A stretch of 57,864 bases of DNA, from the IMG/VR virus record IMGVR_UViG_3300033141_002732; one strand, given 5' to 3'. The position numbers were made by a program, and so were the translations under genes. The DNA comes from a virus (Duplodnaviria > Heunggongvirae > Uroviricota > Caudoviricetes). The notes under the pieces were generated by a model. The model did not search any database. It saw only the letters and a list, made by a program, of their open reading frames with translations, and had not been told where the DNA came from. This document shows, piece after piece, positions 5,890 through 17,435 of this stretch (positions within the stretch are counted from its first letter, which is position 1; the number at the start of each line of letters is the position of its first letter).

Positions 5890-5909
5890 ATTATTTAATA
5901 ATTTAAAAT

Positions 5910-5930
5910 CTTATATATATTAATAAATGA
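5910..5930 (+). promoter_or_regulatory. Class A promoter-like motif upstream of tRNA-Trp
   Basis: CTTATATATATTAATAAATGA, ending 18 nt before the tRNA. Confidence 0.65.
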
Positions 5931-5948
5931 AGAATAGATTTAAGTAAT

Positions 5949-6022
5949 GGGTCGATCGGTTAGTTGGCTAAACCACTGGTCTCCAAAACCAGTTACCCTG
6001 GGTTCGAATCCTAGTCGACCCG
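5949..6022 (+). tRNA. trnW: tRNA-Trp (CCA)
   Basis: GGGTCGA/TCGACCC acceptor stem, CTGGT-CTCCAAA-ACCAG anticodon arm, TTCGAAT T-loop, G73. 3' CCA not encoded. Confidence 0.93.
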
Positions 6023-6056
6023 CATTTAGTACATAATAAATAATATAGAGGAAATT

Positions 6057-6353
6057 ATGAACAAAACTGAAAAAGAAATGCATAAAAATCTAGTTACTAT
6101 ATTAACCGGAGCTTTACAATATTTATTAATGAATAATGAAGGTGTTGTAGTGGAAGCAGATAATATATTATATATTGTTTGTAAAAAAAATGATAGAATA
6201 ACAATTTTGCCAGCATCTCATTGTACTCAAAAAACAGGTAATGATGATATTCTTATGAAGGTGAAGGCGAAGGATCCAAGTTTATATCATATGTTGATTA
6301 AAAAATCTCAGGAGTTAAAAAGTTGGTACAAAAGTATATGTACATCCAACTGA
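6057..6353 (+). CDS. Hypothetical protein
   Basis: ORF track; GAGG SD. Confidence 0.5.
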   Translation: MNKTEKEMHKNLVTILTGALQYLLMNNEGVVVEADNILYIVCKKNDRITILPASHCTQKTGNDDILMKVKAKDPSLYHMLIKKSQELKSWYKSICTSN

Positions 6354-6415
6354 TGAAAAAAAACAAAATATTAAATTTTTAGATAATTACAAATAATTTA
6401 ATATATGGAGAAAAA

Positions 6416-6673
6416 ATGGAAGAAAAAGAAGGATCATTAAAGATTTGGTGGATTCCTCAAGTTCCTATGAAGCCATTTTTTGTAGAAGTAGAATCATTAC
6501 AAGAAGCAAAAAAAATTTTAAAAATTCTCGCTGAATATGATTTGTTTCAATATAAACATAGAGTGAAACCAGATTATTGTAATGTAGGTGGTTTAAGCAT
6601 TTTTAAAGATGGTGAATGGGTTGAATGGTGTGATGAAGAAACTGGTGATAATATTGACAATTATAAAATATAG
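6416..6673 (+). CDS. P22 gp17-like (superinfection-exclusion gene 17 family) protein
   Basis: WWIPQVPMKPFFVEV..LAEYDLFQY..KPDYCNVGGL matches the family signature as I recall it. Confidence 0.7.
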   Translation: MEEKEGSLKIWWIPQVPMKPFFVEVESLQEAKKILKILAEYDLFQYKHRVKPDYCNVGGLSIFKDGEWVEWCDEETGDNIDNYKI

Positions 6674-6688
6674 GAGATTAATATTTTT

Positions 6689-7063
6689 ATGAAACAAGAA
6701 TTAGAATTACAATTAGTTAAAAAATATCCAAAATTATTTCAAGATTATCATGGAGATATGAGACAAACATGTATGGCTTGGGGTTGTGAACATGGTGATG
6801 GATGGTATAATCTTTTAGATAAACTTTGTGAAAAATTATCAAAATTTGATGAAATTACTTTTGCACAAATTAAAGAGAAATTTGGTCTTCTTAGCGTTTA
6901 TGTACATGGTTGTACAGAAGAAAATTTTGATGAAGTTCATAACATCATTGAAGAAATAGAATTAGAATCAGAGAAAGTATGTGAAAATTGTGGTCAACCT
7001 GGAGAATTAAGAAAAGGTTCTTGGTTATATACTTTATGTGATAAATGTTTTGAAAAGAAATGA
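6689..7063 (+). CDS. Conserved phage hypothetical protein (QIKEKFG family, C-terminal Zn ribbon)
   Basis: GDGWY, QIKEKFG, CENCG and TLCDKC motifs. Confidence 0.65.
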   Translation: MKQELELQLVKKYPKLFQDYHGDMRQTCMAWGCEHGDGWYNLLDKLCEKLSKFDEITFAQIKEKFGLLSVYVHGCTEENFDEVHNIIEEIELESEKVCENCGQPGELRKGSWLYTLCDKCFEKK

Positions 7064-7115
7064 TAGAAGTTAAAGATTAGAAAATAACAATTTAATTTTA
7101 GAAAGGAATGTTATA

Positions 7116-7409
7116 ATGACTGAAAGTATATGTGAAGAATGCGAAAAAATAGATTCTTGTAATCCAGAAGAAGATGATTGTGAGAAGATTATGCTTGATC
7201 CAAGTAATCTTTTTGAATCGATTCGAGTAAAAGGAGTATGTCCAGATTGTTCAGGAACAGATTTTATACATTATCCAAAAAGTGAAGAAGGCGGTTTTGA
7301 TAATCGAATTCAATGTTCTAATTGTAAATCTATATTTGAGATGTGGGGTCGTTGGAATTATACAAGATATGGGGAACAATTTTATAGATATTATTCTTTT
7401 CGGTTTTGA
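7116..7409 (+). CDS. Cys-rich hypothetical protein
   Basis: Three CxxC pairs. Confidence 0.5.
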   Translation: MTESICEECEKIDSCNPEEDDCEKIMLDPSNLFESIRVKGVCPDCSGTDFIHYPKSEEGGFDNRIQCSNCKSIFEMWGRWNYTRYGEQFYRYYSFRF

Positions 7410-7468
7410 TAAATTTATATAATTGATTATATAAGTTACATAAAGTTATTTCAAGAAGGGAGGAATGC

Positions 7469-7657
7469 GTGGAGAAAATAGAAAAACATATTGAAAAATG
7501 CAAAAAGCAATTGATTCATAATGGTGGTTTTTGTATTCGTTGTAAAACGAATAAAGCTGAAATTCATAATCCAAATTCAATTAGTAATTTTCATTGTAAA
7601 ATATGTAATTCTGAAACACAACAAATTCTTGAAATACTTAATAAAAAGATAATTTAA
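7469..7657 (+). CDS. Small CxxC hypothetical protein
   Basis: GGAGG SD before a GTG start; two CxxC pairs. Confidence 0.5.
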   Translation: MEKIEKHIEKCKKQLIHNGGFCIRCKTNKAEIHNPNSISNFHCKICNSETQQILEILNKKII

Positions 7658-7796
7658 AAATATTTTTATGTTTTCGTAAACAATAAAAAATGGTAGTTAG
7701 CTTTTCTGTTTAGGGAGTTTGTTAATCTCCCAACCTACCAAATTTTCTTGTTTTTAAATAATAATTTTATAATTATAAGTTAGAAGGAAATAAATT

Positions 7797-8446
7797 ATGA
7801 TAATAAGATCACAAAAAGAGTTAGTTAAGGCAATTGAAAAAGGTAATAATGTTTTTGAAATAGTTGGCTTTATTGCAGAACTTTGGGGAAACTCCCATGC
7901 AGTGCTTTGGGAAACTCCCATGCAGTGCTTAAGGGAAACTCCCATGCAGAACTTTGGGGAAACTCCCATGCAGTGCTTAGGGATTTTTCGTGTGCTCATA
8001 AGCTATCTGATAGATCAAAAATAAAAGGAGATCCGAAATATATTTTTGCACCTAAGTATCCATCAGATATAAAGGGATGGGGCAAATTAAAAGGAATAAA
8101 AATTAAAAACAACCGGATTCAATTATGGAAAATAGTTAAAAAAGATGGAACTGATTTTTATAGTGGATCAATAAATTATGATACAAATAAAGAGATAATT
8201 GATCCAAATTGGAATGATAATTTTAATGGTGAATGTGGTCATGGGTTGCATTTAGCGGATAGCCCATCAGGAGCAAGATTTTTCTATAATTACAGACACT
8301 TAGAAGAAGCAAGACTATTTAAAGTATCTGACAATATTGATGATTGTAAATGTTTTGGGGGATTATCTAAATACCCCATGAAGATAAGAGCAAGGGCATG
8401 CAGAAAAGTTAAAGAGTATTCTATTGATTATATTGAGGAGATATAA
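7797..8446 (+). pseudogene. Repeat-containing phage protein (A-E/V-L-W/K/R-G-N-S-H repeats plus a conserved C-terminal ECGHGLH domain), split by a 1-nt deletion
   Basis: ORFs 7797-8024 and 7883-8446 join if repeat unit 2 (23 nt) regains one G; the span is 650 nt, one short of 217 codons. Confidence 0.75.
7875..7993 (+). repeat. Coding tandem repeat, 24-nt unit GCAG(AA/TG)CTT(TG/AA)GGGAAACTCCCAT, four units plus a degenerate fifth
   Basis: Units start at 7875, 7899 (23 nt), 7922, 7946 and 7970. Confidence 0.9.
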
Positions 8447-8828
8447 AAAAATGAAAAAATCAGAAAATGTTAAATTAAATGATGGTTTTAAACAAGTTTG
8501 TGTATGGCCAGGAACTATTGTGGTTCAAGATGAAAATAAAAAACAAGAATATATAGATAATTTTGTAAAATCAATGGAAGAATATTTTAAAGTGAAAGTT
8601 CAATATTTAGAAGAAATTAAAACTAGACCAGATATTCAAGATGAAATTTCTGTAGATAATACAGGTGAAAGAAATGATTTGTTTTTTGCAATACATAATG
8701 ATGATATAAACAAGTTTGCTATTCCAAGATTAAAAGCTGGAATTAGATGGATAGAAGATGTCTTATCTAAAGAAAATTATAATTCTCCAATCTATCCAAG
8801 TAGAGTATTTAAATATAAATGTTGGTAG
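8424..8828 (+). CDS. Conserved hypothetical protein (probable start 8451)
   Basis: ORF track; GAGGAG SD before ATG 8451. Confidence 0.6.
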   Translation: MIILRRYKKMKKSENVKLNDGFKQVCVWPGTIVVQDENKKQEYIDNFVKSMEEYFKVKVQYLEEIKTRPDIQDEISVDNTGERNDLFFAIHNDDINKFAIPRLKAGIRWIEDVLSKENYNSPIYPSRVFKYKCW

Positions 8829-8844
8829 TATAATAAAATAAAAC

Positions 8845-8927
8845 GCCCAGGTGGTGGAACTGGTATACACGAGGGACTTAAAATCCCTTGACGAAAAGTC
8901 ATGTGGGTTCAAATCCCACTCTGGGCA
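8845..8927 (+). tRNA. trnL: tRNA-Leu (TAA)
   Basis: GCCCAGG/TCTGGGC acceptor stem, AGGGA-CTTAAAA-TCCCT anticodon arm, long variable arm, A73. Confidence 0.93.
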
Positions 8928-8957
8928 CTTTTTAATTTTAAATAGGAGAAAAACATA

Positions 8958-9134
8958 GTGATTAATTTTATTTTAGATATATTTTGTATATTATTATTTT
9001 CTTTTATATTCTTTCTTTCGCAATCTTTATTTTGTATTAGTATCGGAATTTTATTTATTATTGATTTCTTTATTGAATCAATAATTAACTTTTATAATGG
9101 AGTTATAAAATGGAATACATTTATATATATTTAA
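8958..9134 (+). CDS. Small hydrophobic protein (58 aa, GTG start)
   Basis: Below the ORF-track cutoff; AGGAG SD; almost entirely hydrophobic. Confidence 0.45.
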   Translation: MINFILDIFCILLFSFIFFLSQSLFCISIGILFIIDFFIESIINFYNGVIKWNTFIYI

Positions 9135-9283
9135 TTATAACTACTATAGTTAATTCTATTTTTGCAATTATATGGACAAGAGATAGTCTTTTTAATCTTT
9201 GTATAAGATTATATTTTTCTTTATTTAGTTTATATGGTATTTTTCTTTTATTAAAAGAATCTGGTTATATAATTAAATTTTAG
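9110..9283 (+). CDS. Small two-TM membrane protein (57 aa)
   Basis: Below the cutoff; GGAG SD; MEYIYIYLIITTIVNSIFAIIWTRDSLFNLCIRLYFSL... Confidence 0.5.
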   Translation: MEYIYIYLIITTIVNSIFAIIWTRDSLFNLCIRLYFSLFSLYGIFLLLKESGYIIKF

Positions 9284-9302
9284 ATAAAAAGGAATTTAAA
9301 TA

Positions 9303-9566
9303 ATGGAATTCTCAATGAGAAATATTACAGTTGAACAAGCATGTTCTATATTATCTTGTCTTGATTATGCAAATACAATAATTACTTATATGAATGAAGA
9401 AATAAATATATTCGATTTACATTACAAATTTAAACAAAGACAAAACCTTTCTTTAGATGCTAAGGAAGTAAAATTATCATTTAAACCATTAAGATCTAAT
9501 AATTTGAAAGATGCTACTCTTTTAGATCTTGTAATTGATAGATTAGAAATGTGTATTCATTTATAA
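9303..9566 (+). CDS. Hypothetical protein
   Basis: ORF track. Confidence 0.5.
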   Translation: MEFSMRNITVEQACSILSCLDYANTIITYMNEEINIFDLHYKFKQRQNLSLDAKEVKLSFKPLRSNNLKDATLLDLVIDRLEMCIHL

Positions 9567-9581
9567 GGAGTATCTTTTTTA

Positions 9582-9824
9582 ATGATTCATTATTTTTTTA
9601 GAAGTGATATTTATCAACAAGCTCCTAATCATTATTCTTATATTAAAAAAATGTATCCAGATAAAGAAGTTAAGATTTATTTGTTTTATCATCCTCCAAA
9701 ACCTAATTGGAAAGCATTTGTTGTTGGATTTGATTTTAAAATAGAAGATATAAAAGAGCCTCATTTAATAGATTTACATTATAGAGAGATATCAGAAAAA
9801 TATTTTGTTTCTATGGAAGGTTAA
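9582..9824 (+). CDS. Hypothetical protein
   Basis: ORF track; AAGGAG SD. Confidence 0.5.
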   Translation: MIHYFFRSDIYQQAPNHYSYIKKMYPDKEVKIYLFYHPPKPNWKAFVVGFDFKIEDIKEPHLIDLHYREISEKYFVSMEG

Positions 9825-9826
9825 AA

Positions 9827-10189
9827 ATGTCAAAGATAATTGGTATTGTTGGAACAAGAAGTCGTGATTCTGAAGAAGACTTAAAAATAATTGAAAAGTT
9901 ATTTTTAGAACATTATAAGCCAGGTGATACTATATGTTCTGGTTTATGTCCAAAAGGTGCAGATAGATTTGCTGTAATTTTACAAAAAAAATATAAAACA
10001 AAAAAGAAATGGTTTCCTGCAAACTGGCAAAAATATGGAATAGCAGCTGGTTTTATAAGGAATACTAATATTGCAAAATTTTCTAATATTTTAATTGCTT
10101 GTGTTTCTAAAGATAGAAAAGGAGGAACAGAAGATACTATTAAAAAGTTTATGAAATTTCATGGAAAAGAGAGTCTAATAGTTTGTTAA
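9827..10189 (+). CDS. SLOG-family (DUF2493/YspA-like) protein
   Basis: IVGTRSR, SG.C.KGAD, FPANW.KYG.AAG..RN, GGT..TI motifs. Confidence 0.8.
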   Translation: MSKIIGIVGTRSRDSEEDLKIIEKLFLEHYKPGDTICSGLCPKGADRFAVILQKKYKTKKKWFPANWQKYGIAAGFIRNTNIAKFSNILIACVSKDRKGGTEDTIKKFMKFHGKESLIVC

Positions 10190-11307
10190 AAATAGCATCA
10201 GAATCTTTAGAAGTTAAAGAAGACACTTTAAATCATTTTAAATTGAAAGATCCATTTTCTCTCAATGAAGTTGAGGGATATATTTGTAGAAAATCTGATT
10301 ATAGATATGGTGCATTATTTATTTATAAAGTAAATGATTGGAAATGTAAACAAATTATATATACTACTCCAAAATTAGAATATCCATTTAATAGAAATGG
10401 AGATTTTCAATGGCCAGAAATTTATAAAATGGAAGCTTGGGAAAAATTAGATGGAACTAATATTCTTGCTTTTTGGTATAAATATAAAAATGAAAATTTC
10501 TTATCTTTTAAAACTAGAATGTCTCCTTTTCTACAAGATGGTAATTATGGAGGTTTTTTAAGTCTTTGGAAAGAATATTTTTCAAAGAATTTGTGGATTT
10601 CTGAAGTAATAATGGCAAATAAAGAATATAATCTTTCTTTTGAATTATTTGGTTCAAGAAATCCAATTACTGTAGAATATAAAATTCCTTTAGAAGTAAA
10701 TCTTCTTTTTGGAATTAGAAAACATGATCATGTAATCAAACCTCCATCAAAATTAAAAACATTTTATGAAACTAAATTACCATTTAAAATGAATATTAAT
10801 AACAAACTAGATTTAACTGAATTATATGAAAATTTAAGAAAATCAATGTCAGAAAAAAATAAAGATATATTTACTATTGAAGGTATGGTTTTGTATTCTC
10901 TTTCTAATGAAGAATCATGGAGACAATTTAAATGTAAACCTGAAGAAATTCAAAAGATTCATTGGTCTGCTGGTGGAATTCCTAAAAGGGAATTATGGAA
11001 TACAGCAATTAATTCTTTTGAAGAAGGAGAAAATTCTTTAGAACATTTTATAGATTTATTACGTGAAGAATATACAGATCAACAAATAGGAAGGTCTGAG
11101 CAGAAAATTAAAAAGATATTTTTAAAAGCAAATGAACATATTCAACTTGTATCACAAGTAAATAAAGTTTGGTTTTTGGCTAAAGAAAAAGGATTTGATA
11201 TTACTAAAAACAAAAATAATACTTTCAGATTTATTAGTCAATATTTTGACAAAAAAGAAATGAGAAGAGTAGGATCAATAATTTTAAAACAAGCAAATTT
11301 AATATAA
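10183..11307 (+). CDS. ATP-dependent RNA-ligase-like nucleotidyltransferase
   Basis: Motif I EKLDGTNI, motif III FELFG, motif IV EGMVL, motif V FKCK. Confidence 0.7.
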   Translation: MLKIASESLEVKEDTLNHFKLKDPFSLNEVEGYICRKSDYRYGALFIYKVNDWKCKQIIYTTPKLEYPFNRNGDFQWPEIYKMEAWEKLDGTNILAFWYKYKNENFLSFKTRMSPFLQDGNYGGFLSLWKEYFSKNLWISEVIMANKEYNLSFELFGSRNPITVEYKIPLEVNLLFGIRKHDHVIKPPSKLKTFYETKLPFKMNINNKLDLTELYENLRKSMSEKNKDIFTIEGMVLYSLSNEESWRQFKCKPEEIQKIHWSAGGIPKRELWNTAINSFEEGENSLEHFIDLLREEYTDQQIGRSEQKIKKIFLKANEHIQLVSQVNKVWFLAKEKGFDITKNKNNTFRFISQYFDKKEMRRVGSIILKQANLI

Positions 11308-11308
11308 A

Positions 11309-11698
11309 ATGATAAAAAAATGGAAAGATCTTATTATTGAAGTATTAGAGTTTGAAGGCGATTGTTTAAGTCTCGATTCTATTGCAAATAGAATTGTTGA
11401 TGAATATGGTAAATATGGTGTAATAAAAAATAATAAATTAAAGAAAAATATAAGAGATTGTATTAGAACTTCTTTAATTGGTTATATATGTTCTAATTCA
11501 ACTCATGGTCCTAAGATATTTTTTCAAAATAAAAACAAAACATATGGACTAGTTTGTTGGTTAAATTCAATAAATAATTTATTTAATCTAAGAGAAGGTG
11601 AAGAAATTTGTAAAAAATGTAATGGTTTGTTAGGGTGGTGTAATACTTGTTATGGAAAAGGAAGAGTTCTTTGGATCGATAATTTGATTGGAAAATAA
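11309..11698 (+). CDS. HARE-HTH-like winged helix fused to a C-terminal CxxC-(D/L)W(I)(E/D) zinc finger
   Basis: N-terminal WKDLIIEVL..LSLDSIANRI..TYGL; C-terminal CKKCNG..CNTCYGKG..WIDNLIG. Confidence 0.55.
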   Translation: MIKKWKDLIIEVLEFEGDCLSLDSIANRIVDEYGKYGVIKNNKLKKNIRDCIRTSLIGYICSNSTHGPKIFFQNKNKTYGLVCWLNSINNLFNLREGEEICKKCNGLLGWCNTCYGKGRVLWIDNLIGK

Positions 11699-11700
11699 AA

Positions 11701-11729
11701 AAAATGAGTTATTTATTACAACTCATTTT
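11701..11729. terminator. Bidirectional intrinsic terminator
   Basis: AAAATGAGTT/AACTCATTTT 10-bp stem with A/T tracts on both sides. Confidence 0.75.
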
Positions 11730-11736
11730 TTTTGTA

Positions 11737-12067
11737 CAAAAAAACCTCCAGACGAATCAGGCCTGCAGTCCCGAATCACTTGCAAGTTTTTTGACATTCC
11801 TCAACTGAATATACAACGAACTAAGTACAAGCGGCTAACTTTTCCACCGTATGTTCGCTGTTGTCAAGGAGACATGTCATGTCTGGAGGTTAAATGCTGA
11901 GTCTTCTAAAGTGCCACAACCCGACCTTAATTATATTAAGGGTGGACCAGGCAGTCCGACAACCCGAACACATTTTCTTCTGGGGTTAAAATTCAACCCG
12001 TGCCGTTAGCCGGAAAAAGAAATGATTATTTTTTACTATTCATTCCTTTGTGGTAGACAACCTCAGC
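11737..12067 (-). ncRNA. Unassigned structured ncRNA A (about 330 nt)
   Basis: G/C-enriched island downstream of a class A motif (12077-12092). 11-bp closing stem 11743-53/11881-91 followed by a U tract, nested stems with G-U pairs valid only on the - strand, three further hairpins and an 8-bp long-range pairing. Confidence 0.7.
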
Positions 12068-12076
12068 TTTTCTAAT

Positions 12077-12092
12077 TATTTATATATATAAG
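12077..12092 (-). promoter_or_regulatory. Class A promoter-like motif driving ncRNA A
   Basis: CTTATATATATAAATA on the - strand, about 10 nt upstream of the structured region. Confidence 0.6.
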
Positions 12093-12100
12093 ATTATTTT

Positions 12101-12538
12101 TTATATGTAAATAATTTGTAATAGTTTTCTTATTTTCATAATAATCTTTCCGAGATTATTTTCTCCTTTTCCATTACACATTCCCCAGAAAGTGTCACCA
12201 TGTTTATTTCCTTCTATTAATATTGCATTATTTGTATTTAAAAGTTTTATTCTTAAATTTCGATGACTTATATATTTAATCCAATTAATTATAAACATTA
12301 ATTCTTTATCATAATCAAACCAGTCATTTGGTTTAGAAGATGATTCTCTTTTCGCTTGCCATGGTTTTGGTAATGAAATAATGTAATTTCTATATTTTTC
12401 ATCATTCGATTTAAATGTATGATATGCATGTTCATTTGTTGTAAATATATATTTTCCAATTCTTATTTCAGCAAAATAAAAATTTGATAAGAAACTAAAT
12501 TCTCCAGTGAAACTATCTATAATTCTTTCCATTTTCAT
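12101..12538 (-). CDS. NADAR-family (YbiA-like) hydrolase
   Basis: FLSNFY, EHAY, LIEGN..GDTFWG, GENNLGKIIM motifs. Confidence 0.92.
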   Translation of the reverse strand: MKMERIIDSFTGEFSFLSNFYFAEIRIGKYIFTTNEHAYHTFKSNDEKYRNYIISLPKPWQAKRESSSKPNDWFDYDKELMFIINWIKYISHRNLRIKLLNTNNAILIEGNKHGDTFWGMCNGKGENNLGKIIMKIRKLLQIIYI

Positions 12539-12540
12539 TT

Positions 12541-13554
12541 TTAATGTCTTTCACTTCTTTTCTTTTCGCTTAAAGTTGTATATTCAAAATTTAAACATTT
12601 AGCCATTTTATGTGGATATTTTAAACTTGTTATTACAATACCTTCACGTAAATTTTCTGTTGTAAGTTCAGATGGTTGATCTGCTATTTCTCTTACTTGC
12701 TCAATTGATTCAAATTTTGTATAGTGGAATTTTACATGAGGTAAATCATAATTTTTGCATATTTCAACAAATTCAGAATTATGTAAATACTCACCATTTT
12801 TAGTAGCAGCAAATAATTTTATATCTGTTTCTTTTAATCCATATGAAAAATTCTTTTGAATTCCTAATCCAAAAATTTCGCCAAAGAAAACAATATCATA
12901 TGGAATTTTTGGAAGAATTTTTTCTTTTGCAATTTTCCAATAAATATTTTCTGCATTTCCTTTAAGAACTATATTATGAGATCCAACATATTCTTCTTTT
13001 TTATCTTCATGAGGATGTTGTAATATTCCAAATCTTGAATTGGTTCCATGTATTTTTTCAGACCAAATTATTTTTTCTCCTTTTTCAAATGTATATGGTT
13101 CATTTAATATATTTGGCATTTTATAAAATTTTATAAAATGAGGATTTACTGAAGATAAAGATAATGCTTCTCCTCGCATTTGAATTGTTGGTAGATCTTC
13201 CCATTTTAATATAAATGGAATATATGGTTTAACTTTTTCCATTGAAAGGATTAAACCTTCAGATCTATTTCCCCTTAATCTAGTAACTCTTACTTTACCT
13301 TTTGCTAAATATTTTGTAACTTCTACTTCTTCACTTAACTCAAAAGGGAGAACTGACTCGGGTGGAATAAATAAAACTTTGTCTCCAATTTTATGTAATC
13401 CTTTTTTTGAAATTGCACTCCAACCAATTTCTTGAAATAATATTTTTTCTAAAAAATCTGAATTTTCCGCTGGAGAAATTTCTTTAATAGTTACTTCTTT
13501 AATATATGGTGAAACTTCACAATGAGATATTTCTCGTTCATATGTTATTTTCAT
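12541..13554 (-). CDS. RNA ligase, DRB0094-like family
   Basis: N-terminal OB-like region (GDKVLFIPPES, LRGNRSEGL), EKIHGTN, FGEIFGLGIQK, REGIVI. Confidence 0.88.
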   Translation of the reverse strand: MKITYEREISHCEVSPYIKEVTIKEISPAENSDFLEKILFQEIGWSAISKKGLHKIGDKVLFIPPESVLPFELSEEVEVTKYLAKGKVRVTRLRGNRSEGLILSMEKVKPYIPFILKWEDLPTIQMRGEALSLSSVNPHFIKFYKMPNILNEPYTFEKGEKIIWSEKIHGTNSRFGILQHPHEDKKEEYVGSHNIVLKGNAENIYWKIAKEKILPKIPYDIVFFGEIFGLGIQKNFSYGLKETDIKLFAATKNGEYLHNSEFVEICKNYDLPHVKFHYTKFESIEQVREIADQPSELTTENLREGIVITSLKYPHKMAKCLNFEYTTLSEKKRSERH

Positions 13555-13563
13555 TATTTATCC

Positions 13564-13846
13564 TCAACCTTTTATAATTTTTTTTGTTGTTTTTCTAATA
13601 TGTTTTATTGTATATACACCACATGGACATTTATATCTATAATTTCGTTTTGTTTGTTCATTTGTTTTTGAATATTTTTTTAATAATTTTGGAAATATTT
13701 TTTGACAAATTTTACAATCCTGTCCAACACAAAATGGACAAAAACTTTTTTTTATTATCATTTGGCTTATTTAACCAATCTTGAATTCCATTTATATAAT
13801 TAGGATCTAATAAAATTCTTTTATAATTATTTTCTATTATTTTCAT
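13564..13846 (-). pseudogene. Cys-rich protein, paralog of 13870-14139, split by +1 A in an A8 run
   Basis: An ATG at 13846 with an AAGGA SD encodes INGIQDWLNKPNDNKK. Removing one A (13746-13753) joins it to SFCPFCVG, collinear with the paralog's ITGIQIWLKRLNKYKLRYCPF. Confidence 0.75.
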
Positions 13847-13869
13847 TTTTTATCATCCTTTCTAATTCA

Positions 13870-14139
13870 TTATATTTCTTCAATTTCTTTTATTATTTTT
13901 CTTGATTTTTTTATGATATATTTTAATGAATAAACTCCACATGGACAATCGTAATCATATTTCCTATTTGTTAGTTTTATTTTTGAATATCTTTCTTCTA
14001 AATTTGGAAATATTTCTTTGCATAAATCACATGATCGTCCAACGAGAAATGGACAATAACGAAGTTTATATTTATTTAATCTCTTTAACCATATTTGAAT
14101 ACCTGTTATTTCTGTTTGACTAAAGTTATATTTATTCAT
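13870..14139 (-). CDS. Cys-rich small protein (CPF..C..C...CPCG)
   Basis: ORF track; tandem paralog of the preceding gene. Confidence 0.65.
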   Translation of the reverse strand: MNKYNFSQTEITGIQIWLKRLNKYKLRYCPFLVGRSCDLCKEIFPNLEERYSKIKLTNRKYDYDCPCGVYSLKYIIKKSRKIIKEIEEI

Positions 14140-14155
14140 TATTTAAAACCTTTTT

Positions 14156-14437
14156 TTACGATAGTTCTTTTAATTTTTGTTTAAGATGTTTTATTTCATT
14201 TTGTTTTGTTTTTATTTTTTCTTTTAATTTATTTTTTAAGAATTTGTTTGCTTTATATCTAGTCTCAAAAATCCAACTCATTAGATATCGTTCTCTAGAA
14301 CCAAATATTGTTCTAATTACAAGTGTTGGTTCTTCATCAAAAGAAGATTGATTTTTTCTTTCTAATAGAACTCCTTCTTGTATTGTATCAGAATAATTAT
14401 CATAATAATATATTTTTTGTGCTTCTTTTAGATTCAT
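14156..14437 (-). CDS. Hypothetical protein
   Basis: ORF track; lies in the - strand operon. Confidence 0.55.
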   Translation of the reverse strand: MNLKEAQKIYYYDNYSDTIQEGVLLERKNQSSFDEEPTLVIRTIFGSRERYLMSWIFETRYKANKFLKNKLKEKIKTKQNEIKHLKQKLKELS

Positions 14438-14444
14438 TTATTTT

Positions 14445-15773
14445 CTATCCTTTTGTAGATTTTATATTTATAACTGGAATTATTTTATCTATAATTTTTG
14501 CAGTTGGTTTAATTGCTTCTTCTATAATTTTTGGATCTTTGTATGCATCTGGTGCTTCATCTAAAGTATTTTTACAAACAGAAGTTGTATATATTCCTTC
14601 CATTTGTTTTTTAAATTTTTCTAAAGATAATTTTTCTTTAGCTTTTCTTCTTGCAAGAACTCTACCTGCTCCATGAGGTGCTGAAAAATTCCAATCTGGA
14701 TTACTTCTTCCTTCACAAATTAAAATTCCATCTCTCATATTAAAAGGTATAACCATTCTAAATCCTTCAATACTTTTAATTGCACCTTTTCTTATTATTA
14801 AATCATTGAAATCTATATAATTATGAGTAGTTTCAATTATATCTTGAACTTGAATTGAGTCACTTAATATATCAAGGATTATATCAAACATTTGATTTAC
14901 ATTTTTTGATGCATAATGTTGTGCAAAAACCATATCTAAAAGATAATTACAAGCATCATTACCCTCTAAAGTTTCTAAACCAGATGATAAAGTTCCGTCA
15001 AATCCTAATTTCTTTTTTAACTCTTCAATCTTTTTTGGAATATTTTTTTTATCTTTAGTATTTGAAATGATATCTTGAATCTTATTTTGATAATCTTCTC
15101 CTCTTTTTATTTTTAAATTTTCTTTTGCTATATTCTGCCAATATCTACAAATTTTTTCTCCGAATTGTCTGGATCCAGAATGTATACTAATCCAATAATC
15201 TCCAGTATTTCGAGATTTACCTATTTCGATAAAATGGTTGCCTCCGCCTAATGTTCCTATAGAATTTATAGCTCTTTGTATATCCATATTTATTTCTTTA
15301 CATTTTCTTTCGAATTGTTGAAAATCAAATAATATTGGTTGTACATTAGTTCCAAATCTTTCATTATATTTTTTTGTTAAATTTTGTGTTGTGATAAAAG
15401 CTTTTTCCCATGGTAAATATTTTTTTAAATCATATACTGAATTTTTATGAACTGAAGTTCCAAAAGGAATATATTGTTTAATTTTCTTTTCAAGATTTTC
15501 TTTTGTTATATTAGAAAATAAATTTTTTCCAACATTTACAGATAATATTCTACAACCAATATCCACGCCTATTGTATTTGGAATTATTTTAGATGATACT
15601 TCCATTGTAAATCCAATAACACTACCTGTTCCTGCATGAGTATCTGGCATAATTCGAACTGGATTTGTAAATGCTGGATGATTGATAAATTGTATTATTT
15701 GTGAAGAACAACTTTTTTCTATTTCATTTACAAAAACTTTTGCTGTTGTATATTTTCCTTTATATTCAATCAT
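14445..15773 (-). CDS. rtcB: RtcB RNA ligase
   Basis: MPDTHAG, GVDIGC, GTLGGGNHFIE, HSGSR, HNY, RKGA, PHGAGR, DEAPDAYK motifs. Confidence 0.95.
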   Translation of the reverse strand: MIEYKGKYTTAKVFVNEIEKSCSSQIIQFINHPAFTNPVRIMPDTHAGTGSVIGFTMEVSSKIIPNTIGVDIGCRILSVNVGKNLFSNITKENLEKKIKQYIPFGTSVHKNSVYDLKKYLPWEKAFITTQNLTKKYNERFGTNVQPILFDFQQFERKCKEINMDIQRAINSIGTLGGGNHFIEIGKSRNTGDYWISIHSGSRQFGEKICRYWQNIAKENLKIKRGEDYQNKIQDIISNTKDKKNIPKKIEELKKKLGFDGTLSSGLETLEGNDACNYLLDMVFAQHYASKNVNQMFDIILDILSDSIQVQDIIETTHNYIDFNDLIIRKGAIKSIEGFRMVIPFNMRDGILICEGRSNPDWNFSAPHGAGRVLARRKAKEKLSLEKFKKQMEGIYTTSVCKNTLDEAPDAYKDPKIIEEAIKPTAKIIDKIIPVINIKSTKG

Positions 15774-15817
15774 TTTTTTTTGTACCTTTCTGTTAATTTT
15801 GGATGGAATATTGATAA

Positions 15818-15857
15818 AAAAAATAGAATGATATTTGGTAAAATCATTCTATTTTTT
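15818..15857. terminator. Intrinsic terminator-like hairpin downstream of ncRNA B
   Basis: 15-bp inverted repeat AAAAAATAGAATGAT/ATCATTCTATTTTTT. Confidence 0.7.
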
Positions 15858-15868
15858 ATTAATATATT

Positions 15869-16181
15869 AAGGATCCAAATAGCAGCCGGAAGTGTTGGTT
15901 GTGAAAGAGTTGTCACACACTTTTAATCCGGATTTTAAATCGCAGCATTCCAAGCTACTTTGACATAAGACATCATATCATGAGACATTAAGAATCCCTA
16001 TATTTTATCAGGTGGGATACCTGTAAATCATTAAAATGTTTAAACATAATGTCATGAATTGAAGTAATTTTGCTTTGGTTAAGCAAAATTTGTCTGTTTA
16101 TATTTAGCTCCATGCTAATTTCTAATATAACCCAATTAGAGAGGGACCCTATAACTCCGATATTTACACTACCGAATCCTT
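15869..16181 (-). ncRNA. Unassigned structured ncRNA B (about 313 nt) between the DIP1984-like gene and rtcB
   Basis: The ends pair (AAGGATTC-GGTAGT with GCTGCT-GGATCCTT, using G-U pairs). It has a 10-bp hairpin, nested stems and a pseudoknot candidate, a class B motif immediately upstream and a terminator downstream. Confidence 0.75.
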
Positions 16182-16189
16182 ATTTTAAG

Positions 16190-16204
16190 TTTATTATTTG
16201 TTCT
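16190..16204 (-). promoter_or_regulatory. Class B motif AGAACAAATAATAAA embedded in the last codons of the DIP1984-like gene
   Basis: Identical 15-mer to 29717-29731; ends 8 nt before ncRNA B. Confidence 0.6.
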
Positions 16205-16775
16205 GTAGTTCTTCTAAATATGGTTGTTTTTTCTTTTCTTTTTCAATAAAATCAAGAATTGGATGTTCTTCAATTAAATCTGTAATTGCATTTGTAGTTT
16301 GTAATCTTGGACTGAGAGAAGTATAAAAAATATCTAGTTTATTAATATTTCTTTGTTTTTCTTCTTCGTCAAAAAACCATATAACTTGTGGTCTTTTCTC
16401 CCCACTTGAAACTGGATAACGTTGTAATTTTTGTTCACCATGCTTTCTGTTAAGAGCATTACTTGCTTCTTTAATTGGATTTCCTGGGTATCTTTGTATT
16501 ATTAATATTTCTGTTAGAGATAAACGTTTTTCTCCAACGGAAATTATTGTTAAGAGATTTGTAAGTTCAATTCTTACTTTTAACCATATGTATCGTTCCA
16601 TAAGGTCCCCAACAGATTGGACCATACTTTTGACTTCTTTTCTCTGTTGTTTCTCATCTCCATATGGATATCTTTCATTGTCTAATGCAGAACTGTTGTC
16701 TTGAATTTGTTGTATTTTCCGTGTAATTCTTTTTCTTAAATTCTCATACTCATGTAGTGCATCAACTAATTTCAT
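16194..16775 (-). CDS. DIP1984-like coiled-coil protein
   Basis: MKLVDAL...LRKRI, LKVRIELTN, LSLTEIL and the C-terminal LQTTNA pattern resemble the DIP1984 family. Confidence 0.6.
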   Translation of the reverse strand: MKLVDALHEYENLRKRITRKIQQIQDNSSALDNERYPYGDEKQQRKEVKSMVQSVGDLMERYIWLKVRIELTNLLTIISVGEKRLSLTEILIIQRYPGNPIKEASNALNRKHGEQKLQRYPVSSGEKRPQVIWFFDEEEKQRNINKLDIFYTSLSPRLQTTNAITDLIEEHPILDFIEKEKKKQPYLEELQNK

Positions 16776-16817
16776 AATTTAATTCTCCTTAAAAATTAAA
16801 GATTTAAAAAATAAAAA

Positions 16818-16884
16818 AAGAAATAGTGAAATACAGCAATTTCGTAGTCAGGGACATCTCTAGTTTTGTATCTCACTATTTCTT
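16818..16884 (-). promoter_or_regulatory. Long leader hairpin with U tract (attenuator or small RNA) upstream of the DIP1984-like gene
   Basis: 17-bp stem with one G-U valid only on the - strand, a 33-nt loop and a U-rich run before the AAGGAG SD. Confidence 0.55.
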
Positions 16885-17066
16885 GGTTATGTAATAAATA
16901 CAGTGGATAGAGCTAATGGTAATACACAACGAAATTACAAACTAAAGATTATTAAATACATAAATTTATATATATAAGTTATTTTTTTTAACCAGAAATA
17001 ATTTTGAGAAATTATATTTTTTTATATGAACAAAATAACAAATATAGAAATATTGTGGAGTAATTT

Positions 17067-17435
17067 ATGAAAAGAAATATTTTTCATATGATAAGTGAAA
17101 ATAGATATGACGCAGTTTTTTATATTCTTGAAAAAGAACAAATAAAGTTAATTGCATCTGAAATTATTTGTTGGGCTTTATCTAATACTGAAACTGATGA
17201 TGAAAATGATATAAGTGAAATAATTGGAATGATTAATAATGGACTTGATTTAGATTGTGCAGATGAATTTGAAAATTTTATTGGTTATAAGAAAGTTGAT
17301 GAAAATATAGATGAGTTTATGGAAGTAGCAGAACAAATGGTAGAAATGGATAAGAAAGAAAAAGAAAGTTTAGATTCGAAAAAAGAGTTTAAAATAATTG
17401 ATATAGGAGATATTAGAATTGCAAGAAAAGACTAA
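17067..17435 (+). CDS. Acidic hypothetical protein
   Basis: ORF track; GGAG SD. Confidence 0.55.
   Translation: MKRNIFHMISENRYDAVFYILEKEQIKLIASEIICWALSNTETDDENDISEIIGMINNGLDLDCADEFENFIGYKKVDENIDEFMEVAEQMVEMDKKEKESLDSKKEFKIIDIGDIRIARKD

Follow-up and report, generated by a model that had tools for sequence, protein, structure and literature searches.

The locus analysed here raises the question of whether a long gap in front of a phage RtcB gene encodes an RNA of its own and, if so, to which gene that RNA belongs. The window, i.e., the whole analysed stretch of 57,864 nucleotides (nt) of Caudoviricetes DNA (IMG/VR record IMGVR_UViG_3300033141_002732), is densely coded. A gap of 420 nt (16193-15774), among the three or four largest that it contains, is bordered by a 193-amino-acid (aa) open reading frame (ORF; 16775-16194, minus strand) and by the RtcB gene. 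This gap holds ncRNA B, a non-coding RNA (ncRNA) of about 313 nt on the minus strand, counted from one strand of its closing helix, P1, to the other (16181-15869). An earlier note had described it as an unclassified, closed and multi-branched structured RNA, a description that is supported by the covariation among its homologs. The analyses showed that ncRNA B is a real folded non-coding RNA with two pseudoknots, and that it belongs to an RNA family that has no entry in any RNA catalogue and is widespread in phages. We consider it beyond chance because the homologs conserve the structure with compensatory changes. Moreover, ncRNA B is probably the RNA half of a two-part cassette, in which an RNA with pseudoknots, about 300 nt long, comes after a gene resembling DIP1984/DUF6847, the two products forming an RNA-protein particle.

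The comparison with shuffled sequence that the earlier note had proposed favoured the minus strand, which folded with z = -3.15 and, in a repeat, z = -3.39 (1 of 400 shuffles was as good), while the plus strand of the locus gave z = -0.75. Random 200-nt windows of the same genome had a mean z of -0.33 (standard deviation 1.15, 5th percentile -2.35), and ncRNA B lies at about the 2nd-3rd percentile of this background. Its G + C content is 0.339, against 0.251 in coding sequence and 0.14-0.29 in gaps free of transfer RNA (tRNA) genes, in a genome of about 25% G + C. P1 by itself was not significant, as 19% of shuffled gaps contained an equally good long-range helix. Taken alone, the evidence from folding the single sequence is suggestive, not decisive.

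All elements that had been listed for this RNA were found at their coordinates on the minus strand, to which all positions of RNA elements given below refer, and most were recovered by ViennaRNA with high pairing probability. The value was 0.8-0.9 for P1 (16181-16168 with 15883-15869), 0.97 for a 10-bp hairpin (16090-16081 with 16075-16066), 0.92 for UCUAAU/AUUAGA, 0.93 for UUAGC/GCUAA, 0.99 for CAGGU/ACCUG and 0.9 for the nested 3' hairpin (15931-15886). One further helix of the minimum free energy structure, 16150-16142 with 15999-15991, was rejected; it has no support in the family and conflicts with strands of both pseudoknots.

Relatives of the RNA were sought from both neighbouring genes. 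The copies of this phage in three Joint Genome Institute samples are 100% identical and therefore carry no comparative information. On the RtcB side, no similar RNA was found by nhmmer and blastn in 14 viral RtcB loci and in the contigs of the closest RtcB proteins, the best non-self protein being 57% identical to that of the window. The regions upstream of other phages' RtcB genes are occupied by tightly packed ORFs or AT-rich spacers, and mostly there is no gap. In the closest relative (57%; L033:1-405), two tRNA-like genes with long variable arms and a small membrane ORF lie directly upstream of rtcB, an arrangement that represents another link between tRNAs and RtcB.

On the other side, neither word-based searching with the 193-aa protein nor scanning for patterns matched anything but the protein itself. 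An exact-pattern scan of IMG/VR for the hairpin of pseudoknot 2 followed by GGGAU returned a single match, in a GC-rich phage, which was discarded as chance. An exhaustive HMMER search revealed 243 relatives of the 193-aa protein (E ≤ 1e-3, about 170 aa, 25-37% identity). In the first contigs fetched, about 320-330 nt without genes lie behind the relative of the gene; these gaps share motifs with ncRNA B, and their closing helix shows compensatory changes. The protein alignment (A1) was used to retrieve 68 viral, 80 metagenomic and 17 metagenome-assembled-genome loci, and three collection scans covering sediment, wetland, digester and gut-type metagenomes yielded more than 100 distinct RNA loci. 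Iterated nhmmer detected a homologous RNA in 108 of the 169 fetched loci carrying a relative of the gene, with no match on the opposite strand among the 169. The window copy was a seed of the first profile, but eight rounds of rebuilding then drew on about 100 other loci; against the family profile the copy scores E = 1.4e-25 over model positions 1-280 of 282.

The position of the RNA relative to the gene is narrowly kept. The distance from the stop codon to the start of the RNA has a median of 15 nt, is usually 8-20 nt and stays within 60 nt in 82 of 94 cases; in the window, the RNA begins 12-14 nt past the stop codon, on the same strand. The median length of the family RNA is 299 nt, including about 8 flanking nt. 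The cassette also occurs in cultured Bacillus phages, e.g., Sophrita and pW2, where the gene is annotated as "tail fiber protein" or "hypothetical" or is left unannotated. In Sophrita, the order is four tRNA genes, gp228 and a 388-nt gap, which bears no annotation but contains P1, GUAAA and UAG heptads. The gp228 gene (NC_071042, 143892-144476; L107), labelled as a tail fiber protein like PHROG 1491, is a member of the DIP1984-like family and has tRNA genes around it, and for these reasons the label is probably wrong.

The family has a fixed order of elements: P1, GUAAA, pseudoknot 1 (PK1), variable hairpins, a first heptad tract, pseudoknot 2 (PK2) with GAUAAA, a second heptad tract, an optional hairpin, the 3' domain and the 3' strand of P1. 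The window copy has all of them in this order, with heptads of a deviant AUG type. Pairing was counted on MAFFT sub-alignments, which understate it where registers slip. Covariation among homologs, which the earlier note had suggested as a check, was seen as compensatory changes in P1, PK1, PK2 and the 3' domain.

The 5' strand of P1 (16181-16168) pairs with 15883-15869, leaving a single U bulged, and the helix carries a conserved UCGG/UUGG wobble block. Most of its 14 pairs show double changes in 15 sequences, and the comparison of cognate with permuted strands gave z = 17.2 in 62 members. Directly after P1 follows the GUAAA motif (16167-16163), whose columns are near-invariant in alignments A2 and A4. 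PK1 (16145-16121) combines CCC (16145-16143) with GGG (16133-16131) and UCUAAU (16140-16135) with AUUAGA (16126-16121). Its first stem is paired in 84% of cases across the family and its second in 76%, with 6 of 6 pairs covarying (score 0.52 against 0.22 for shuffled sequences); the slid-register controls were 36-41% paired. The second stem had been read as a simple hairpin with the strand TCTAAT; the helix pairs and covaries, but it is actually stem 2 of a second H-type pseudoknot. The variable region that follows (16118-16066) consists of two hairpins in the window, UUAGC/GCUAA (16118-16104) and the 10-bp hairpin (16090-16066), and of hairpins of differing sequence and length in the homologs.

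PK2 (16023-15994) is the best-supported element of the RNA. Its hairpin pairs CAGGU (16023-16019) with ACCUG (16013-16009), adjoins the conserved GAUAAA (16009-16004) and is paired in 96.5% of cases, with 4 of 4 pairs covarying. The pairing of its loop, AUCCC (16018-16014), with GGGAU (15998-15994) had been put forward as a pseudoknot candidate on the strength of complementarity. In the MAFFT register, this helix is 66% paired against 36-48% for slid registers. The register-free comparison gave a cognate mean of 5.26 against 3.71 ± 0.12 for non-cognate strands (z = 13.3, 0 of 2000 permutations as good), and 46 distinct helix sequences occur among 52 members, e.g., AUCCC/GGGAU in the window, GCUCC/GGAGC, and UUGAAGGG/UCCUUCAA.

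An optional hairpin, GUAGC/GCUGC (15958-15942, pairing probability 0.98), has counterparts in only some members. The 3' domain (15936-15879) consists of AAAAUCCGG, the nested hairpin and CCGGCUGCUAU, and runs into the 3' strand of P1; the family consensus is AAAAUCCRG, a nested hairpin and CYGGCUGCUAU. No shuffle out of 500 reached the observed score of the whole domain. The nested hairpin had been listed in the earlier note. The outer helix of the domain is 100% paired with covariation among CCAG/CUGG, CCGG/CCGG and CUGG/CCAG. The covariation support for the inner helices, which are partly blurred by the register, is weaker (69% paired in the MAFFT register).

The region also contains a 41-codon ORF (16113-15988) and a 64-codon stop-free frame, and it could be asked whether it is a small protein gene or a decayed coding sequence with incidental hairpins. 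The stop-free frame lends this some support, as it would arise by chance in AT-rich DNA with an estimated frequency of about 10-15%. However, the ORF has no Shine-Dalgarno sequence, unlike other genes here, and does not resemble the small ORFs found ahead of other rtcB genes, and the substitutions in the helices are compensatory, not codon-like. In 62 homologs, the longest ORF has a median of 14 codons and reaches 40 in only two; it is this lack of conservation of the 41-codon ORF that leads us to call the RNA family non-coding. We give a coding origin next to no credence.

A further feature of the family is a pair of single-stranded tracts that flank PK2 and are built of 7-nt repeats. The interval between successive A[AC]G triplets is exactly 7 nt in 31% of cases (252/806), compared with 2-15% for control triplets; the heptad logo is UYAAGAY, and there are about 14 triplets per RNA. 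In the window, tract 1 (16059-16024) has about four units, of the YAUGAY type instead of the family's UYAAGAY, and tract 2 (15993-15959) has about five units of the AUG type, which align one-to-one with the AAG units of locus L044 in alignment A2. With nine AUG and two AAG triplets, the window copy is the sole AUG-type member among 62. The unit changes by lineage, being mostly AAG or ACG, UAG in Sophrita and AUG in the window, and this variation fits a partner that co-evolves with the RNA. A long-range helix between 16057-16047 and 15990-15978 had been part of the original description. It is present in this sequence (-70.6 against -77.1 kcal/mol), but it is not conserved and joins the two heptad tracts, which show no mutual complementarity in the family. 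It is regarded as an artefact because CAUG palindromes make the tracts look complementary here.

We also considered whether the heptads complement tRNA anticodon loops (AAG with Lys, AUG with Met), and rejected this idea. No tRNA-Lys or tRNA-Met gene lies beside the arrays; the tRNAs near heptad-bearing loci are those for Pro, Leu, Thr, Arg, Met, His, Ser, Tyr and Gln, and those of the window are for Trp, Leu and Gly. The UAG units of Sophrita match no ordinary tRNA, which counts against the idea as well.

The gene directly upstream of ncRNA B (16775-16194, minus strand) encodes a helical protein of 193 aa that distantly resembles DIP1984/DUF6847. Its neighbours in the ESM Atlas are DIP1984/DUF6847 clusters, and profile searches of PDB and Pfam agree weakly with this assignment: Pfam PF20935 (DUF6847) matches the window protein with 16.7 bits, below the 27-bit threshold, and 14 of 40 relatives match DUF6847 at E ≤ 0.01. 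The AlphaFold2 model (mean predicted local distance difference test, pLDDT, 94.7) consists mostly of long helices with one beta-hairpin, and its sole significant PDB neighbour is the DIP1984 protein 3KDQ (Foldseek probability 1.00 and E = 7e-4, but a TM-score of only 0.42-0.51). The HMMER relatives align to residues 1-170. The remaining C-terminal helix of about 23 residues (171-193; 16262-16194, minus strand; pLDDT about 80) is an extension that the relatives lack. None of the papers found for DUF6847, DIP1984 or septicolysin mentions an RNA, and no published description of a partnership between gene and RNA was found.

On its other side, ncRNA B is followed by the RtcB RNA ligase gene (15773-14445, minus strand; Pfam RtcB, E = 8e-57), which opens an RNA-repair string; an Rnl-type ligase (RNA_ligase, E = 3e-16) and a NADAR protein are encoded in this string as well. 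An intrinsic-terminator-like hairpin with an A tract, a stem of about 15 bp and a U tract lies between the RNA and rtcB (15857-15816) and forms in the fold of the whole gap; this is the terminator that the earlier note had placed after the RNA. In this phage, the order of promoter-like motif, structured RNA, terminator and rtcB resembles an attenuator. One could thus read ncRNA B as the leader of the rtcB operon, a riboswitch or attenuator that senses, e.g., damaged tRNA and controls read-through at 15857-15816. Since no copy of the promoter-like 15-mer described below occurs between the terminator and rtcB, rtcB may indeed depend on read-through. However, RtcB adjoins the RNA in no other fetched locus (flanks of up to 1.5 kb), the RtcB loci of other phages lack such an RNA, the downstream genes vary, and only 11 of 90 related loci have a terminator-like hairpin directly 3' of the RNA. 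Moreover, the alternatives to the terminator that could be found by eye are weak, with helices of only 6 bp. A leader function is thus very unlikely.

The same neighbourhood bears on the idea that RtcB seals or circularises the RNA after it has been cut, or that the RNA is a self-cleaving ribozyme. P1 brings the 5' and 3' ends together and rtcB is the next gene, yet P1 is an ordinary closing helix that is kept in loci without RtcB, and the adjacency of RtcB is unique to this phage among the fetched loci. No bulge-helix-bulge or cleavage motif was seen, and no ribozyme family matched even at E ≤ 10. Both variants are regarded as extremely unlikely. The conserved partner of ncRNA B is probably the upstream DIP1984-like gene and not RtcB.

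Phages related through their DNA polymerase (55-61% identity; L023 and L024) are syntenic with the window from about 17.4 kb onwards, and their matches show no trace of the stretch of about 11.5 kb between 5.9 and 17.4 kb (5890-17418), which holds two tRNA genes, three ligase-like genes, NADAR, a further candidate RNA, ncRNA A, and ncRNA B. In L023, homologs of the genes that flank this stretch lie only about 500 nt apart, and on this ground the repair island looks like an accessory insertion.

The tRNA genes are a more widespread neighbour. They occur within 400 nt downstream of the RNA, on the same strand, in 26 of 90 loci and often within 10-20 nt, a typical arrangement being Pro-Leu-[gene+RNA]-Thr-Arg-Arg. 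The location of the cassette inside tRNA clusters, the presence of RtcB and two further ligase-like genes next to it in the window, and the two tRNA-like genes upstream of the closest RtcB relative are all compatible with a decoy, scaffold or processing element of tRNA metabolism that works with host factors, e.g., a sponge for an RNase or anticodon nuclease or an element for processing tRNA precursors. RNase E prefers RN↓WUU, and the AGAUU of the heptads is similar. Such an element would leave the strict coupling to one protein gene unexplained. The heptads are not complementary to the anticodon loops of the nearby tRNAs, and the lineage changes between AAG, ACG, UAG and AUG are easier to reconcile with a co-evolving phage partner than with a conserved host factor. 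We regard this explanation as unlikely.

How the RNA is made bears on another alternative, in which it is a purely cis-acting 3' untranslated region (UTR) element of the DIP1984-like mRNA, i.e., an exonuclease cap or an autoregulatory site, with no separate stable RNA. The distance of 8-20 nt from the stop codon in most loci speaks for it, as this leaves no room for a promoter and the RNA is thus co-transcribed with the gene. Periodic triplets bound by protein are, moreover, known from cis-regulatory leaders, those of TRAP and HutP. Against it, the two pseudoknots, the 14-bp closing helix and a conserved architecture of about 300 nt exceed what a stabiliser needs, and the same-strand tRNA genes, often only 10-20 nt downstream, suggest that tRNA-type processing releases the RNA. 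In this phage there is also an extra promoter-like motif just before P1. Finally, for the relative L139, one wetland metatranscriptome contains a 433-nt contig with the 3' 240 nt of the RNA and the following tRNA and without coding sequence; no contig over the protein gene of L139 was present in the same metatranscriptome. This contig is a weak sign of expression. A mere UTR function is, on balance, doubtful.

The promoter-like motif, AGAACAAATAATAAA, is a 15-mer in the last codons of the partner gene (16204-16190, minus strand), 8 nt before P1, and lies within the coding sequence of the C-terminal extension that the relatives lack. The earlier note had pointed it out, and it is a genuine recurring motif ahead of genes: with at most 1-2 mismatches, it stands 10-90 nt before start codons at no fewer than nine intergenic sites of the window, and its matches number 83, compared with 35 expected. 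We infer from this distribution that it may act as a promoter. The form AGAACAAAWAATAAA is found at 2873, 20724, 29717, 34545, 39827, 43666, 45299, 53652 and 55089 on the plus strand and at 16204-16190 on the minus strand, often with TTTAGAAA or TTTCTAAT about 22-26 nt upstream. It is a candidate phage promoter class, with copies almost all on the plus strand.

Taken together, the reading that we favour is that of a cassette whose two products form a particle, and it is drawn from the place of the RNA just behind a small protein gene. The RNA would be transcribed together with the gene, here probably also from the promoter-like motif in the last codons of the gene, and the transcript would accumulate as a stable RNA. 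The folded core of P1, PK1, PK2 and the 3' domain would keep the two heptad tracts in a fixed geometry, and several copies of the DIP1984-like protein, or an oligomer of it, may land on these tracts, by a principle of recognition that would resemble that of TRAP and HutP on evenly spaced NAG triplets. The tRNA clusters in other loci and the string of RtcB, RNA ligase and NADAR genes in the window point to tRNA or RNA-damage biology. The upstream DIP1984-like partner, the second pseudoknot and the 7-nt periodic array on which this proposal draws had no place in the earlier description.

Several observations weigh against the proposed particle. Of the gene-bearing loci, 61 of 169 have no RNA match; truncated contigs and the most distant relatives make up many of these, and the pairing may not be universal or the RNAs may have diverged too far. 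The heptads of the window copy are irregular, with spacings of 8, 7, 5, 3 and 7 nt. The partner fold, a helical bundle with 3KDQ as its one PDB neighbour, has no known RNA-binding relative, and the link between protein and RNA consists in their co-location alone. As for expression, the sign from L139 comes from contigs, for which carry-over of DNA is possible, and a run look-up listed no sequencing run for this phage.

A more specific function can be imagined, in which tRNAs or damaged RNA are the targets of the particle while the phage infects its host. The pseudoknotted core would present two 7-nt rails that carry DIP1984-like subunits, and the particle might bind cleaved tRNAs so as to shield them or pass them on, or might sequester an anticodon nuclease of the host; here it might be wired to the RtcB/Rnl/NADAR string, with the change from AAG to AUG as a specificity switch that accompanies an unusually diverged protein. 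We put this forward as a long shot.

Large structured RNAs whose tertiary contacts are conserved are rare, and ROOL, GOLLD and OLE are among those without an assigned function. The association of one RNA with one neighbouring protein gene offers an immediate experimental handle, and the switch from AAG to AUG amounts to a natural specificity-swap experiment. For DIP1984/DUF6847 proteins, which have had a crystal structure since 2009 and are often mislabelled as "septicolysin" or "tail fiber", the cassette provides a first lead. It also corrects the view of the RNA-repair island, in which ncRNA B would have arrived together with the DIP1984-like gene and would not be a dedicated substrate of RtcB.

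Some further regions of the window and of related contigs were recorded. The 356-nt ncRNA A (12092-11737, minus strand) comes right behind the NADAR gene and a box resembling TATAAATA and has a G + C content of 0.40 (0.37 over the 402-nt ORF-poor gap 11699-12100). It folds with z = -4.7, has no Rfam match even at E ≤ 10 and looks like a second genuine structured RNA. A contig of 14 kb (P0003; Logan SRR31155648) carries an HNH gene, an Rnl-type ligase (339 aa), a 300-nt gene-free gap, small ORFs, a 376-aa protein, a 94-aa ORF and RtcB. The genes resemble those of the island in the window but stand in another order, and a relative of ncRNA A could lie in the gap. Local folding signals in the window are strongest between 44500 and 49200 on both strands, where several 200-nt windows reach z of -3 to -4.2 in or beside large plus-strand genes (46001, 48001 and 49001).

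To place ncRNA B among known RNAs, the sequences were compared with Rfam 15, whose families cover transfer-messenger RNA (tmRNA), RNase P, 6S, signal recognition particle (SRP) RNA, Y RNA/YrlA, ROOL, GOLLD, HEARO, raiA, ribozymes and riboswitches. At the gathering threshold, the window contains three tRNAs only. The ncRNA B region gave chance matches at E ≤ 10, the best with 22 bits against a cut-off of 45 bits, and the homologous loci matched tRNAs only (14 loci at gathering, 8 at E ≤ 0.05). Rfam and ARAGORN agree with the earlier statement that the RNA matches none of tmRNA, RNase P, SRP and 6S. A tmRNA was rejected separately, as ARAGORN finds none in the window, the 3' end has neither a T-arm nor CCA, and the internal ORF is not conserved.

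The Salmonella rsr-yrlBA-rtcBA operon combines the Ro60 protein Rsr with the Y RNAs YrlA and YrlB (PMC4201824; PMC7790460). The likeness lies in a structured ncRNA whose 5' and 3' ends pair to close it and which is encoded next to a protein partner, in occurrence in bacteria and phages, and in the neighbourhood of RNA repair, RtcB and tRNAs. Unlike these systems, ncRNA B has no Rfam match to Y RNA or YrlA and no tRNA-like module detected by ARAGORN, and no TROVE or vWA domain was found by Pfam scan in eight neighbouring proteins. The partner here is a helical bundle of the DIP1984 type instead of a ring, and ncRNA B is about three times longer than Y RNAs, with two pseudoknots and heptad tracts. 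Its end-to-end helix with the invariant UCGG/UUGG wobble block is not the Ro-binding motif and matches no Y-RNA model.

A second comparison concerns ROOL, GOLLD, HEARO and raiA, large "ornate" RNAs of phages and bacteria without an assigned function (PMC5737381). Like them, ncRNA B is big and intricately folded, belongs to a family that is frequently phage-borne and often near tRNA genes, and was found through conservation. It differs in that no covariance model matched the window copy or the 14 + 8 homologous loci, and in its attachment to one particular protein gene, to which those RNAs are not bound. The stable RNAs C and D of phage T4 are tRNA-cluster RNAs of about 120-140 nt that are co-processed with tRNAs and have no assigned function. 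They resemble ncRNA B as phage-encoded stable RNAs co-located with phage tRNAs, but they are shorter and have no known protein-gene partner.

The closest parallel to the heptad tracts is offered by TRAP, which binds 11 G/UAG triplets with 2-3-nt spacers, and HutP, which binds NAG triplets with 4-nt spacers, both at short cis-regulatory sites in Bacillus 5' leaders that control a terminator. In contrast to these sites, the arrays described here lie 3' of the partner gene, inside a large, conserved and pseudoknotted RNA, and the partner, whose binding is putative, has an unrelated fold that matches only 3KDQ. What they share is a series of evenly spaced, single-stranded NAG-type triplets, with the same period of 7 nt as in HutP, and by analogy this likeness suggests that one RNA may wrap or line a protein surface with multiple binding sites.

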